DNA of 5,684 bases from a virus (taxonomy: Duplodnaviria > Heunggongvirae > Uroviricota > Caudoviricetes). Positions 3,001 through 5,684 of the stretch are shown piece after piece. Position 1 is the first letter of the stretch; the number at the start of each line of letters is the position of its first letter. The stretch lies in the IMG/VR virus record IMGVR_UViG_2695420699_000012, one strand, 5' to 3'. The position numbers were made by a program.

Positions 3001-5684
3001 GTATCCCTGACTCCCCGACAACTCAGATTTTCAGTATCTGCTGCTATCTAAAGAGAAAGCGCACAAATGCAAGGGTCTTTCATCACGTCCTGTTATTGAT
3101 TGCCTGTGACCTTTTCTTACCTCATGGAACGTTTTTTCAGTTAGAAATATTCATTTTACAACCAGTTCGTATTGTTTATTCATCGACTACTCTCCCCGCG
3201 CCACCTTACGCTTATCTTCTTTAATCTTGAAATAAAGGTTAGTCAGATACGTCAGCAGGCCAAACAGCAGACTCCCCAGCACACCGATTGCCACCCACTG
3301 GGACGGAGAGACTTTGTCCAGCAGCTGCAGTAACCAGTATCCCGTCCCCACCGCTGACGTGGTGTATGACACACCCGTTGTGATTTTTTCCATCTGATGT
3401 ATGTCTCCGTCACCGCCGACAGAAAATGAAAGTAAAGAAAAACAAAAAAACCGCCAGTGTCACCCACTGACGGCCAACTCCGGGAGCCGTGATTATGGCA
3501 TTCAGGCTCTGCTAAAAATGCCAGATAACATTCCGGCCTCCCCTGATTCAGGTTATAAATGACACAATATCTTGACAACACCCGTCACTGTCTGTCAGAA
3601 AATATACCGCCAGGCATAAGTATCATGTGAAATCCAACTATCCTTCTGAGCCAGCACCTCTCCACCGAAAGTCAGTGCTGGCTGTTTTTTTCCTTAATAA
3701 AGCATCTGTAACTGAAACAATCCGCATATTGATAATATATTGACAGGCATCATTGCTGTCTGTGAAAAATAAGTCTCTACAAACATATAAGGCCTTTTAG
3801 CCAGCGTCTTCTTTCAGGTCAGTCGCTGGCTCTTTTTTTATTATGCTGCCGGTGCATTTATCTCCAGCACCAGACTTTCTATCTCAACGCCATACGCTGC
3901 ATTTTTTGTAACATCCGTCAGCGTCAGCGCATTCAGTCCCAGTGTCAGACCGTCTTTTATAACCTGGAATGCCGGGCCAGCCACTCCATTCAGTTTCGGA
4001 GTAACCGTGGCACTGCCGGCGGTGAACACCAGCTCCAGCGTCTGCCAGTCGTTACCGTAATCGCCGAACTCCCCCAGCTTCGTGTTTCCGGCTTTCCTGT
4101 GATGCATCAGATTCACTCTGCCGTCAGTGGTCTGAGTGAAGTACGACATCAGGAACGGATTACCGGTACCCGTCATCGCCACACCATCAGGAACGGGAGC
4201 ATCCGTATACAGATAAATCCCCAGCCCGAACTGATTGTTGGTCAGTGCGCCTGACAGGCGGAACTTACAGGTCAGTCTGCCGCCCTGTGTCAGCAGGGTA
4301 ATTGCGTCATCCACCGGATGCGTCAGGGACCAGGTTTTATTGCTCTGCTTGGTGATCTTAAATACACCATCTGACAACTGAATTCCGCCATCCTTAATGC
4401 TCCAGCCCTGCGCAGCAGCCTCTCCGGCTGCCGGCAGCAGGGAGATTGTGCGAACGGACGTATCTGCAGACGGACCCGATGGCGTGTTGCCGCCGGGCGA
4501 GGGTTTGATTTCCGGTGCCTTACCACTGATGAAGGCTGAGGTGCGCCCGGCTGCGTTCAGAATAGCGGTTGCCAGACGATCCGGAATAATGCTCCTGCGC
4601 GCCCATGAACTGAAATGTGTCGGGCGGTTTGATGATACCTGGTTTCCATTCGTTCTCGATGCCGCACCGTAATATCCTGATGCCGGAATATCCGGATCTT
4701 CTGCCGGCGCGTTAGTGGCGGTATTGACGCCGTTACCGTCTGTCATGAAGGGCACAAAATAAACGCCCTCACTCTCCCTGTTTTTATACCCGCCGTACAC
4801 GGTGTCGTACTGGGTAGCGTATGTATTTTTCCAGTAATACGTCGTGTCACCACAAATCCACGGCACATCTGCAGCACTGCCACCATGGCACTGCGCGTTA
4901 AACACGGAGAGGTCAGCACGAAACTGTGTCAGCATGGCTGTAAACAGCGCAGGTTGCTGTGCGTGGGTGGCGGCGCTCATGTCAAACTCTCCCTGCATCC
5001 AGCACACCGCCAGCAACACATTTTTCGGGTTCTTCTGTAATGCAGCTTTAGTGCGCGCAATCAGGTCCTGATATAACGGTTTACCCACACCCCAGCGTGC
5101 CGAATCCTGGCTGGCCCCCGTGTCCGCACTGAATGTCCCCTCCGCGCCCTGGGTGAATGCCGAACCACCACGACAGCATGGTACCAGCAGGATCCCCGCG
5201 TTATTCGGGATATACGGAAGCAGTTTTTTGGCAATATGTAAGCCCTGGCCGACACAGCCGTACTGCCCTTTGCTCAGGTCTGCCTTCGGATGATTCAGCG
5301 TACTCATATCCTGCACATCATGCAGGCAGTGGTCGGCCGGAATAATATCGTTATATCTGCAGGCAGCCCCACCCGGCGTAACTGTACTGCGGCGCGCCAG
5401 CTGTTTAATGCGCGGATCCGGAGCATCGTATGAATCCGGCAGCGGAAGCCCTTCACCGTAAGCCATGGCATTGGACTGCCCGGCCAGTACGATGACGTAG
5501 TACCAATCCGGCTCAGTTGCACCACTGACCACCACATCACCTTCTGCTGTAATCGCCTGCATCAGGGTATAAGGGGTTATGGCCACCGGACTACCAAACG
5601 GCTGCCAGCCCTCTTTCAGTTTGTGTGTCAGCTTTTCCGCAAGGTCTGACGGCGACGCCGCCCTGACAACATCATAATGTTTAA

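Follow-up and report, generated by a model that had tools for sequence, protein, structure and literature searches.

The intergenic region between holin S and nanS-p in a Caudoviricetes sequence as the pasA small RNA locus with a probable diverged tandem paralogue

What two similar short units do between the lysis and esterase genes of a tailed phage is the question raised by the 5,684-nt stretch of DNA analysed here (IMG/VR record IMGVR_UViG_2695420699_000012, in full referred to as the window). A reading of the sequence alone (hereafter the sequence-only reading) had proposed a pair of short transcription units antisense to the late transcript, which it did not recognise, with protein-binding iterons as an alternative. 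The region is best explained, at a probability of roughly 0.85, as the prophage sRNA gene pasA accompanied about 50 bp downstream by a diverged tandem paralogue; the two are called here unit 1 and unit 2, and their terminators T1 and T2 (Table 1).

Table 1. Coordinates of the features discussed, in window positions.
Feature	Position	Strand	Remarks
Holin S, class II (P21-type)	3187..3393	-	Pfam PF04971, E = 1.9e-32; divergent from pasA
Unit 1 -35-like hexamer TTGACA	3572..3577	+	Unchanged in every homologous locus, L097 (83% identical) included
CTGTCTGT	3588-3595 (unit 1), 3756-3763 (unit 2)	+	Ten bases past TTGACA in both
Unit 1 extended -10-like element, TGT then CAGAAA	3593..3601	+	18 nt past -35; inferred from geometry relative to the published PasA 5' end
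pasA sRNA gene, 85-nt major form	3607..3691	+	Homology to NC_011601 743499..743415
Long (minor) PasA isoform, T1 read-through	3607..3840	+	About 234 nt here, 236 nt in E2348/69; mapped through L003
T1, intrinsic terminator and Hfq-binding PasA 3' end	3649..3691	+	9-bp stem, 17-nt loop, U7
T1 arms	3649-3657, 3675-3683	+	9 bp, 100% complementary; T7 at 3685-3691
Predicted PasA seed GCCAGCACCU, in T1 5' arm	3650..3659	+	Fig. S5 of PMC8550237; window sequence identical
Spacer between unit 1 and unit 2	3692..3739	+	Recurrent IS insertion site
Unit 2 -35-like hexamer TTGACA	3740..3745	+	Invariant across loci; kept in decayed plasmid remnant L127
Unit 2 extended -10-like element, TGT then GAAAAA	3761..3769	+	Inferred; 18-nt spacing as in unit 1
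Predicted unit 2 RNA, about 65 nt	3775..3839	+	Also 3' part of long PasA isoform and EcOnc52 peak
Unit-2-specific stretch (probe = complement)	3775-3806	+	CTCTACAAACATATAAGGCCTTTTAGCCAGCG
T2, second intrinsic terminator, PasC type	3799..3839	+	Adjoins nanS-p stop codon
T2 arms	3799-3806, 3824-3831	+	8 perfect bp, 17-nt loop (11 bp at 91% extended); T7 at 3833-3839
nanS-p, SASA carbohydrate esterase with DUF6645 domain	3841..5586	-	Pfam PF03629, PF20350; convergent with both units
nanS-p stop codon	3841-3843	-	Single base (3840) between T2 and stop
nanS-p mRNA site GGUGCUGG, complementary to PasA seed	3864..3871	-	CCAGCACC at 3651-3658 and again 3864-3871

ORF and Pfam analyses give the order esterase, pasA and class II holin, with pasA on the strand opposite to both genes, in agreement with the published synteny, and the same gene arrangement is found in NC_011601 and in phages 434, H-19B and YYZ-2008, the latter (NC_011356) being a named PasA phage with a 95.5% match to the intergenic region. 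The phage 434 record (OL657226) carries terminators annotated at T1 and at T2. PGAP annotates nothing in the intergenic region, which receives its correct label through recognition of the window as the pasA locus. ORFs overlapping the units have only 20-38 codons and found no support in the small-ORF check, and a small-ORF reading of the units was rejected on these grounds. Homology breaks occur in several loci within the spacer (3714/3718 and 3731/3733), and in Sakai Sp4 IS629 is inserted between the units. The tandem order is the usual one among the loci fetched, with 71 complete cases and others cut at contig edges.

Global alignment shows positions 3565-3695 and 3733-3843 of the window to be direct repeats that have diverged, 84 of the 99 aligned bases being identical, with an alignment score of 78.5 versus 29.9 ± 5.3 (maximum 54.5) for 1000 dinucleotide-preserving shuffles (z = 9.1). 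In each unit, TTGACA-N10-CTGTCTGT is followed by an A-rich stretch, then by an AGCCAGC/GCTGGCT hairpin and a run of seven T. TTGACA alone is not enriched in the window (four found, 3.7 expected); almost all homologous loci fetched, however, contain the composite TTGACA-N10-CTGTCTGT exactly twice, at a distance of about 168 bp. The similarity between the units is therefore not due to chance, a reading rejected on both the z-score and the twofold presence of the composite motif. Tandem Repeats Finder did not detect the pair, since the units are too diverged and contain indels. The likeness of unit 2 to unit 1 is not confined to the terminator, the promoter-like block being also shared, and the -35, the TG and their spacing are kept in both units while the body between promoter and terminator has been remodelled. 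Termination signals are restricted to the + strand, because the minus strand presents CAGAAGG and AAAAGG, and not a T-run, past the hairpins. The elements described by the sequence-only reading were all confirmed at the positions it gave, among them the one-strand T-runs and the contact of unit 2 with the nanS-p stop codon, and the -10 elements are weak, as it had noted; the distance of 40-70 nt that it gave from the A-rich block to the hairpin fails for unit 2, where it is 28 nt.

Judged by its sequence, unit 1 is the already known Hfq-dependent prophage sRNA PasA (EcOnc51 in O157). It coincides with PasA of E2348/69 in locus, strand, 5' end, 85-nt length, terminator and predicted seed, with both the 3' stem-loop carrying poly-U and the seed GCCAGCACCU being present. 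Positions 3607-3691 are gaplessly identical to it at 74 of 85 sites, including the whole of the 3' 44 nt, and the eleven substitutions all lie within the first 41 nt, a restriction due to an alternative 5' body in the window copy. This copy is probably the variant named PasA-2 in the preprint of Zhu, Shabalina and Storz (2026, bioRxiv 10.64898/2026.05.13.724894; hereafter Zhu et al.). Furthermore, the target of the PasA Northern probe (its reverse complement) is matched exactly at 3658-3682. In E2348/69, PasA (E2348CN_0003) is described as an Hfq-stabilised 85-nt RNA on the basis of Northern, RNA-seq and RIL-seq data, expressed in lysogens under virulence-activating conditions and joined by RIL-seq ligation to many core and accessory mRNAs (Pearl Mizrahi et al. 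2021, PMC8550237). It ranks among the most highly connected accessory-genome sRNAs in EPEC. The Hfq-CRAC peak EcOnc51 in Sakai Sp12, reported in 2014 (PMC4104026, Table S2), lies on sequence identical to unit 1. Of 5426 complete E. coli genomes, 692 (about 13%) contain unit 1 copies; these genomes are chiefly EHEC and EPEC, and the median is 4 places per genome. EcOnc15 (Sp15), considered as an extra copy, was rejected, as it sits between Q and stx1A and is unrelated. Thus, the pair left unnamed by the sequence-only reading corresponds to PasA/EcOnc51 and EcOnc52.

The Rfam and covariance check proposed by that reading gave two different outcomes. No Rfam family covered the units when the whole window was run through cmscan at E <= 1, the only match being a chance one to rimP at 1811-1886; PasA is absent from Rfam 15. 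A covariance model built from 8 PasA variants and PasC scored unit 1 at 112.6 bits and matched 3760-3839 (+) at 34.2 bits (rough E 6e-6), which places unit 2 in the family, although the PasC row brings a T2-like terminator into the model. No other match was obtained in the window, and a search of 618 kb of prophage DNA found only copies of unit 1 and unit 2.

In the proposed explanation, PasA transcription would start at about 3607, six bases past the TTGACA-N15-TGT-CAGAAA promoter-like element, and would head from holin S towards nanS-p, in the antisense direction relative to the Q-dependent late transcript. T1 would stop most of the transcripts, giving the 85-nt Hfq-bound sRNA, while read-through of T1 would produce the minor isoform of about 234 nt ending at T2. 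The TG and the A at hexamer position 2 of the unit 1 -10-like element are kept in divergent copies. Since the -10-like hexamers are weak (3/6 matches, with A instead of T at the last position), a consensus promoter scan called neither unit's promoter; it called CTGAAA-18-TATATT at 3712-3741, upstream of unit 2. A consensus terminator scan picked up only the inner part of T2 and missed T1 because its loop exceeds 8 nt.

The TTGACA-N10-CTGTCTGT-A-rich block might also be regarded as an RNA element, namely a 5' hairpin (GACA(G)/CTGTC) with an AU-rich RNase E site after it, both belonging to a longer transcript started upstream, from which the 85-nt PasA would be processed. An inverted repeat in the same register in the blocks of both units is in line with this, as are the location of the PasA 5' end in AAAAUAUA/CC, an A/U-rich single-stranded stretch, and the presence upstream of TATAAA (3554-3559, unit 1) and of the promoter-like site at 3712-3741 (unit 2). 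In addition, Zhu et al. (bioRxiv 10.64898/2026.05.13.724894) report that cleavage of a longer transcript produces the PasA 5' end, in which case TTGACA...CTGTCTGT would belong to the RNA and not be a promoter. However, the only longer PasA form in Table S6 of PMC8550237 is 3'-extended, not 5'-extended, the 5' ends of PasA and PasC coincide, each lying exactly six bases past the hexamer, and TATAAA at 3554 has no convincing -35. Moreover, a perfect TTGACA at a fixed 18-nt distance from a TG-N-hexamer in both paralogues is the pattern of a promoter. Origin of the 85-nt PasA by such processing is considered unlikely.

Within the motif lie a short palindrome (GACAG/CTGTC) and a directly repeated CTGT, features that would suit protein-binding sites (iterons or operators) instead of parts of RNA genes; expression of PasA is also condition-dependent, which makes binding of a regulator close to the promoter quite plausible. 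Nonetheless, just two motif copies are present, 168 bp apart and each followed by its own terminator, the flanks are lysis and esterase genes, ORF and Pfam analyses of the window place no replication or partition gene near the units, and RNAs from the units are seen in published Northern, CRAC and RIL-seq data. An operator overlapping the promoter would, in any case, form part of the sRNA-gene explanation and not replace it. Stand-alone binding sites are thus highly improbable, and iterons, understood as three or more regular repeats by a replication initiator gene or origin, are rejected.

Covariation among homologues was sought in 120 IMG/VR loci plus a scan of one genome per species, the loci being ascertained with a search pattern in which the outer 7 bp of the stems are fixed. 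No copy falls below 83% identity, and all of them come from Escherichia. In the one-genome-per-species scan, the esterase was found only in Escherichia (E. albertii, Escherichia sp.), two of the three loci being without the units. With the diversity this shallow and the outer stem fixed by the search pattern, a single compensated change could be read from the sequence, one that distinguishes the paralogues: at stem position 8, A-U in T1 is replaced by G-C in T2 and PasC. Across three divergent copies, the promoter-like blocks show 9 differences in 175 positions versus 92 in 707 for the other non-coding blocks (Fisher p = 0.002). Of all segments, the unit 2 block (3740-3774, 35 nt) is the least diverse (pi 0.0054), and it is 35/35 identical in the decayed plasmid remnant, while the unit 1 block (3572-3606) has the fewest variable columns.

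Regarding unit 2, its 5' body is shorter than that of unit 1 and unrelated to it, and whole-RNA folding z-scores are modest for unit 2 (-1.8 to -3.2) and unremarkable for PasA (-0.5), only the terminators being well defined. Published data on E2348/69 show that an RNA 3' end at T2 is bound by Hfq and that the minor PasA isoform ends there. Table S6 of PMC8550237 gives a PasA start at 743499 and a minor-form end at 743264, which is window 3840, with the major and minor forms sharing the 5' end; the RIL-seq RNA2 fragment 743267-743294 falls on T2, and the entry takes the RNA2 place in 100% of its chimeras. The published interpretation of this RNA is read-through from pasA (PMC8550237). Unit 2 may in that case be no gene, but a decaying duplicate acting solely as back-up terminator, with all T2-ended RNA being pasA read-through and the block conserved only because the locus is young. 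The shared 5' end of both forms points in this direction, the chimeras at unit 2 in EPEC (119 versus 4983 at PasA, about 2%; PMC8550237) fit read-through alone, the at least 83% identity of all copies leaves little weight to conservation of the unit 2 block, and leakage of T1 is plausible given its large 17-nt loop and modest stability (-15.8 kcal/mol).

The Hfq-CRAC peak EcOnc52 bears on the same point. It was reported at Sakai 1181998-1182075, minus strand, in prophage Sp4 (PMC4104026), and maps to window 3851-3774, on sequence identical to unit 2, when the coordinates are taken on NC_002695.2 (the paper possibly used version 1). Its AUC is 1.03 M versus 1.09 M for EcOnc51, both peaks having predicted Rho-independent terminators (PMC4104026). 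In Sp4, unit 2 is separated from unit 1 by an IS629 located 21 nt upstream of its TTGACA, the lysis cassette being inverted, and the 5' edge of the peak, 3774, agrees with the +1 predicted from promoter geometry, 3775. Since unit 2 is identical in Sp4 and Sp12, the EcOnc52 reads could be multi-mapped Sp12 read-through, which would again favour unit 2 as a mere terminator. On the contrary, the location of this 5' edge at the predicted +1, with no upstream extension, and the near-equal AUC values argue against read-through only. Likewise, the significantly lower divergence of the promoter-like blocks relative to neighbouring non-coding blocks, the preservation of the unit 2 -35, TG and spacing despite the remodelled body, and the fact that unit 2 is intact where IS elements or inversions took unit 1 away argue against a pure back-up terminator. 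Unit 2 as a terminator only is thus a serious possibility, although one to which somewhat less than an even chance is given. Of the two short antisense transcription units of the sequence-only reading, the first stands as Northern-validated PasA, while for the second what stands is an Hfq-bound 3' end at the T-run, read in the literature as read-through.

Returning to pasA with a tandem paralogue, firing of unit 2 from its own promoter, at about 3775, appears evenly balanced, and would yield an RNA of about 65 nt corresponding to the EcOnc52 peak. T2 would, for its part, halt + strand transcription before it runs antisense into nanS-p. More tentatively, and at odds just short of even, unit 2 might be an autonomous and so far unnamed third PasA/PasC member, that is, a ~65-nt Hfq-binding sRNA made from its own TTGACA/extended -10 promoter, with the pasA locus being a tandem pair whose recombining terminators led to PasC. 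The stem-arm seed of such a third member would be GCCAGCGUC in place of GCCAGCACC, and its single-stranded 5' region would be different.

PasC (E2348CN_0005) relates to both units. Its 5' part agrees with unit 1 at 29-30 of 36 positions, while its terminator agrees with T2 at 42/44 and with T1 at 34/45, and adjoins the esterase stop codon as T2 does. The promoter region and 5' body of PasC are thus of the unit-1 type, and unit 2 shares with it the PasC-type terminator; the 5' body of unit 2, CUCUACAAACAUAUAAGGCC, is unrelated to the PasC body and aligns with it only with several gaps, so that the terminator module alone is common to both. The PasC probe target GTACATCTACCCGTTTTAGCCAGCG has no exact match, its best ungapped match (17/25) being in unit 1, and identity of unit 2 with PasC was rejected because the PasC 5' body and this target are absent. 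PasC loci also differ in consisting of one unit, whereas the window locus has two, and in one tandem locus (L059) unit 2 carries a PasC-type loop. From these comparisons, PasC appears to be a hybrid of a unit-1-type 5' part and a unit-2-type terminator, which seems to be new: such an origin is described neither in PMC8550237 nor by Zhu et al. (bioRxiv 10.64898/2026.05.13.724894), and a literature search on pasC, with results dominated by long-COVID papers, gave nothing further. PasC would have arisen when a unit-1 promoter and 5' body became joined to a unit-2-type terminator via recombination between homologous hairpin regions.

OmrA/OmrB and PrrF1/PrrF2 are tandemly duplicated sRNA genes. 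As the units described here, they are adjacent paralogous promoter-body-terminator units of one strand whose ends are conserved and whose bodies have diverged, and a longer RNA can result from read-through, as at pasA; unlike in these pairs, independent expression of unit 2 is only predicted. Zhu et al. contrast the Pas genes with tandem cases such as these (bioRxiv 10.64898/2026.05.13.724894). AgvB and AsxR (Rfam RF02702 and RF02703) also resemble the units in being short Hfq-binding RNAs of Stx-type prophages; they are encoded in the moron region, antisense to the late transcript, and their 3' terminators are conserved while their 5' ends vary. However, they occupy another position (AsxR is found between stx2 and the esterase), measure only 51-60 nt and act as anti-sRNAs, no sponge activity being known for PasA. 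Identity with AgvB/AsxR was rejected, as cmscan gave no RF02702 or RF02703 match in the window at E <= 1.

In general, the finding is mostly known biology, unit 1 being published and unit 2 lying within published data, and no major concept is altered by the tandem arrangement. What seems new is the near-constant company of pasA by a cryptic paralogue with a conserved promoter-like block, and this constant second unit, together with the hybrid PasC, refines the evolutionary account of the Pas family. EcOnc51 and EcOnc52 are cited in later work simply as PasA homologues, although their coordinates mark two different units, and probes, read mapping and "PasA homologue" labels conflate the two. 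If unit 2 is autonomous, recombination between homologous terminators would yield chimeric sRNAs such as PasC, offering a concrete mechanism for prophage sRNA diversification, contrary to the published statement that denies tandem duplication any part.

The nanS-p site CUGGUGCUGG, complementary to the PasA seed, makes nanS-p a candidate for PasA regulation. Among the RIL-seq motifs in Table S7 of PMC8550237, the 3' ends of both E2348/69 esterase genes appear as PasA targets, with the site CUGGUGCUGGA.

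The + strand module at 3572-3691 (unit 1) lies with a diverged + strand relative at 3740-3839 (unit 2) in the 447-bp gap between nanS-p and S. Many EHEC and EPEC chromosomes have this intergenic region at 100% identity and without annotation; in phages H-19B, 434 and YYZ-2008 and in many Stx1a phages the identity is 95-99%, and the curated record of phage 434 annotates both + strand terminators (T1 of unit 1 and T2 of unit 2). Table S6 of Pearl Mizrahi et al. 2021 (PMC8550237) gives the Northern probe for PasA, an sRNA of EPEC E2348/69, as GCCAGCACTGACTTTCGGTGGAGAG, together with a major form of 85 nt (NC_011601 743499..743415, minus strand), a minor form of 236 nt (NC_011601 743499..743264), with E2348C_0688 (esterase) and 0689 (holin) as the neighbouring genes. 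Reverse-complemented, this probe matches the window exactly at one place, + strand 3658-3682, and base-for-base alignment with the E2348/69 locus places PasA at 3607-3691. Thus, by sequence correspondence, unit 1 is pasA, whose RNA is Northern-validated and Hfq-stabilized; it is produced under virulence-activating conditions and in RIL-seq is one of the best-connected accessory sRNAs (PMC8550237). The window and E2348/69 versions share 74 of 85 bases, all 11 differences falling within the first 41 nt, which fits the PasA variants with a common 3' end and divergent first ~40 nt described in a preprint (Zhu, Shabalina and Storz 2026, bioRxiv 10.64898/2026.05.13.724894). The sequence-only reading, which had taken both modules for short phage sRNA units, was essentially right for unit 1; both members of the pair it did not recognize had been published, unit 1 as PasA/EcOnc51 and unit 2 as EcOnc52 and the end of the long PasA form.

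In the window, the minus strand carries the late (lysis) genes of a lambdoid Stx-type prophage.

Annotated features of the late region and terminators of the two units
Feature	Coordinates	Strand	Description	Basis
T1, terminator of unit 1	3649-3657 and 3675-3683	+	arms AGCCAGCAC/GTGCTGGCT, 17-nt loop, seven T	
T2, terminator of unit 2	3799-3806 and 3824-3831	+	arms AGCCAGCG/CGCTGGCT, 17-nt loop, seven T	
nanS-p	3841-5586	minus	SASA esterase with DUF6645 domain	ORF + Pfam
Holin S	3187-3393	minus	P21-type	ORF + Pfam
Lysozyme R	1966-2499	minus		ORF + Pfam
Rz, Rz1		minus		ORF + Pfam
PerC/Pch-family gene	383-697	minus	104 aa	Pfam E = 3.8e-44

All the elements previously named in the two units were found in place, with the T-runs confined to the + strand, as had been stated. 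TTGACA occurs at 3572 and 3740, with CTGTCTGT ten bases on in each unit and then an A-rich stretch, and T2 ends one base from the nanS-p stop codon. On alignment, 84 of 99 positions are identical, with a score of 78.5 versus 29.9 +/- 5.3 for 1000 dinucleotide-preserving shuffles (z = 9.1), and therefore units 1 and 2 are, on these sequence statistics, homologues, chance likeness being excluded. Conservation is centred on the promoter-like block and the terminator, while the stretch between them is remodelled, including a 13-nt indel near the PasA start.

Both promoter-like blocks (P1, 3572-3606; P2, 3740-3774) read TTGACA-N15-TGT-[C/G]A[G/A]AAA, which on sequence amounts to a consensus -35 element, an 18-nt spacer with an extended -10 TG at its end and a weak hexamer. 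For PasA and for PasC, another E2348/69 sRNA, the published 5' end is the sixth base past the hexamer. Transferred to unit 2, this position is 3775; EcOnc52, an Hfq-CRAC peak of O157:H7 Sakai, has its 5' edge at 3774. In the most divergent copies among the homologous loci fetched for comparison (L097, L082, L122), substitutions affect the spacer, the third base of TGN and the first and third bases of the hexamer; TTGACA, TG and the A in second place of the hexamer are free of them. In these three, the promoter-like blocks show 9/175 differences versus 92/707 in other non-coding blocks (Fisher p = 0.002), and of all segments P2 is the least diverse (pi 0.0054, 63 distinct haplotypes). In a decayed remnant on ~92-kb EHEC plasmids the P2 block is kept at 35/35 positions, the stem and body having drifted. 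These figures, which come from young, related and mosaic sequences, argue for constraint on the promoter-like blocks, short of proof. A consensus promoter scan of the window called neither unit promoter and did call another site, at 3712-3741; we infer two promoters, one per unit. The -35 hexamer and the first CTGTC also form a short inverted repeat, GACA(A/G)...CTGTC, in equal register at 3574-3592 and 3742-3760, which could be an operator for a putative regulator or an RNA hairpin; CTGT is directly repeated in the block.

Regarding unit 2, mapping through the E2348/69 locus places the PasA minor-form end (743264) at window position 3840, that is, at T2. The RIL-seq data contain a separate entry on the same strand as PasA, pasA.E2348C_0688.IGR, with a U-tract of 7, which is the second RNA in all its chimeras (PMC8550237), and one fragment listed for it, 743267-743294, falls on T2. 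Table S2 of Tree et al. 2014 (PMC4104026) lists EcOnc51 (prophage Sp12, + strand, 2237479-2237555) and EcOnc52 (prophage Sp4, minus strand, 1181998-1182075), both with predicted terminators and similar signal. Read on NC_002695.2 (the paper may use version 1 coordinates), EcOnc51 corresponds to window 3635-3711, in unit 1, and EcOnc52 to 3851-3774, in unit 2; the two are jointly cited as PasA homologues, their coordinates being those of different units. The unit 2 TTGACA of Sp4 has an IS629 end 21 nt upstream, the IS transposase being directed away from the unit, and the lysis cassette past the IS is inverted, leaving unit 2 without pasA upstream. EcOnc52 in Sp4 is thereby the strongest hint of independent transcription of unit 2. 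Since unit 2 is identical in Sp4 and Sp12, the signal might also come from multi-mapped read-through RNA. An autonomous unit 2 RNA of ~65 nt is given a probability of about 50%, and the earlier sRNA reading of unit 2 stays plausible and unproven.

A covariance model built from eight PasA variants and PasC, with the terminator stem as its only structure, gives 112.6 bits for unit 1 and 34.2 bits (rough E 6e-6) for unit 2 (3760-3839); across 618 kb of prophage DNA it found no class beyond these two, always in tandem. The upstream region and 5' body of PasC are of unit 1 type (29-30/36 positions), its terminator is of T2 type (42/44 aligned positions versus 34/45 for T1) and adjoins the esterase stop codon exactly like T2, and a tandem locus (L059) has a PasC-type loop in unit 2. 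Because of these features, PasC looks, from sequence, like a fusion of a unit 1 5' part with a unit 2-type terminator, for which recombination or deletion between homologous CCTTTT(G/T)AGCCAGC segments would be the simplest route. The reverse order, with a single PasC-type unit later duplicated, is also conceivable. The preprint describes PasA and PasC as alignable and of common ancestry, states that pasA copies did not arise from tandem duplication, and makes no mention of the second module. The pair itself is already known; reading the units as tandem paralogues and PasC as a hybrid is new and of modest interest.

For identical or near-identical sequences elsewhere, a + strand 85-nt Hfq-dependent RNA ending at T1 and a minor ~236-nt form ending at T2 are reported (PMC8550237), with Hfq contacts at both terminators (PMC8550237, PMC4104026). 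T2 would act as a barrier against antisense transcription entering nanS-p, and the 5' arm of T1 would base-pair in trans. The PasA seed core CCAGCACC at 3651-3658 recurs in the nanS-p 3' end at 3864-3871, so that PasA could pair over 8 bp with the esterase mRNA; such a repeat within 5.7 kb is not significant by statistics alone. RIL-seq gives this match as a PasA target site, the 3' ends of both E2348/69 esterases being PasA targets in its table S7 (PMC8550237). In the MFE fold of the long isoform (3607-3839, +), T1 and T2 swap partners, the 5' arm of each pairing with the 3' arm of the other, since the stems belong to one family; the modelled long form may therefore differ from PasA in structure and function.

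Among complete E. coli genomes, unit 1 occurs at 2850 places in 692 of 5426 and unit 2 at 2304 places in 677, 100 of these places being on plasmids; in a scan of one genome per species, neither was found outside Escherichia. The usual order in the fetched loci is S, P1, T1, spacer, P2, T2, nanS-p (71 complete cases), exceptions being loci with an IS in either the spacer (3714-3733) or unit 2, those with the PasC-type fusion, and those whose esterase is followed directly by S. The spacer is a recurrent point of IS insertion or rearrangement (Sp4, L125, where the IS is IS629; L025, L033, L048, L063, L117, L118), other breaks lying at ~3783 and ~3833, and the terminator-less 'PasA-3' of the preprint may be such a spacer case. 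On EHEC plasmids (~100 places; L127, NZ_CP027339.1, a 92-kb plasmid, 2470-2625), unit 2 lies with an 87-nt esterase 3' remnant between the lactonase gene uilS and IS600, its promoter-like block intact, its stem weakened (A-C, G-U) and its T-run down to six. In Escherichia sp. MOD1-EC7003 (L129) and E. albertii NBRC 107761 (L130), the holin comes directly after a nanS-p homologue; both Pas units are absent, and all that is retained is a last CTGGCTC-N-TTTTTAT beside the stop codon. This could be an ancestral or a deleted state.

The PerC-family gene occupies the same position beside the lysis cassette as the gene annotated pchA in Sakai Sp4; this and its Pfam match indicate that the prophage carries a member of this transcriptional-activator family adjoining the cassette. 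The minus strand also has a strong hairpin resembling an intrinsic terminator at 3449-3475 (GGCCGTCAGTGGGTGACACTGGCGG, then T7), in the stretch from the S start to pasA, where the phage 434 record annotates a terminator; it would end Q-independent nanS-p transcription ahead of the holin, and Q-modified polymerase must pass it. In the interval from R to the Rz region, a hairpin at 1844-1876 (AAAACCCCG...CGGGGTTTT) with flanking A and T runs resembles a bidirectional terminator, and a weak Rfam rimP-leader hit there (24.8 bits against a cut-off of 47) was rejected as a chance match to it. The unusually long S-R gap (2500-3186) contains a 104-codon ORF on the opposite strand (2617-2931, +), which gave no match in a Pfam search; in related prophages its place is taken by a YdfR-family gene or a DUF1327 remnant.
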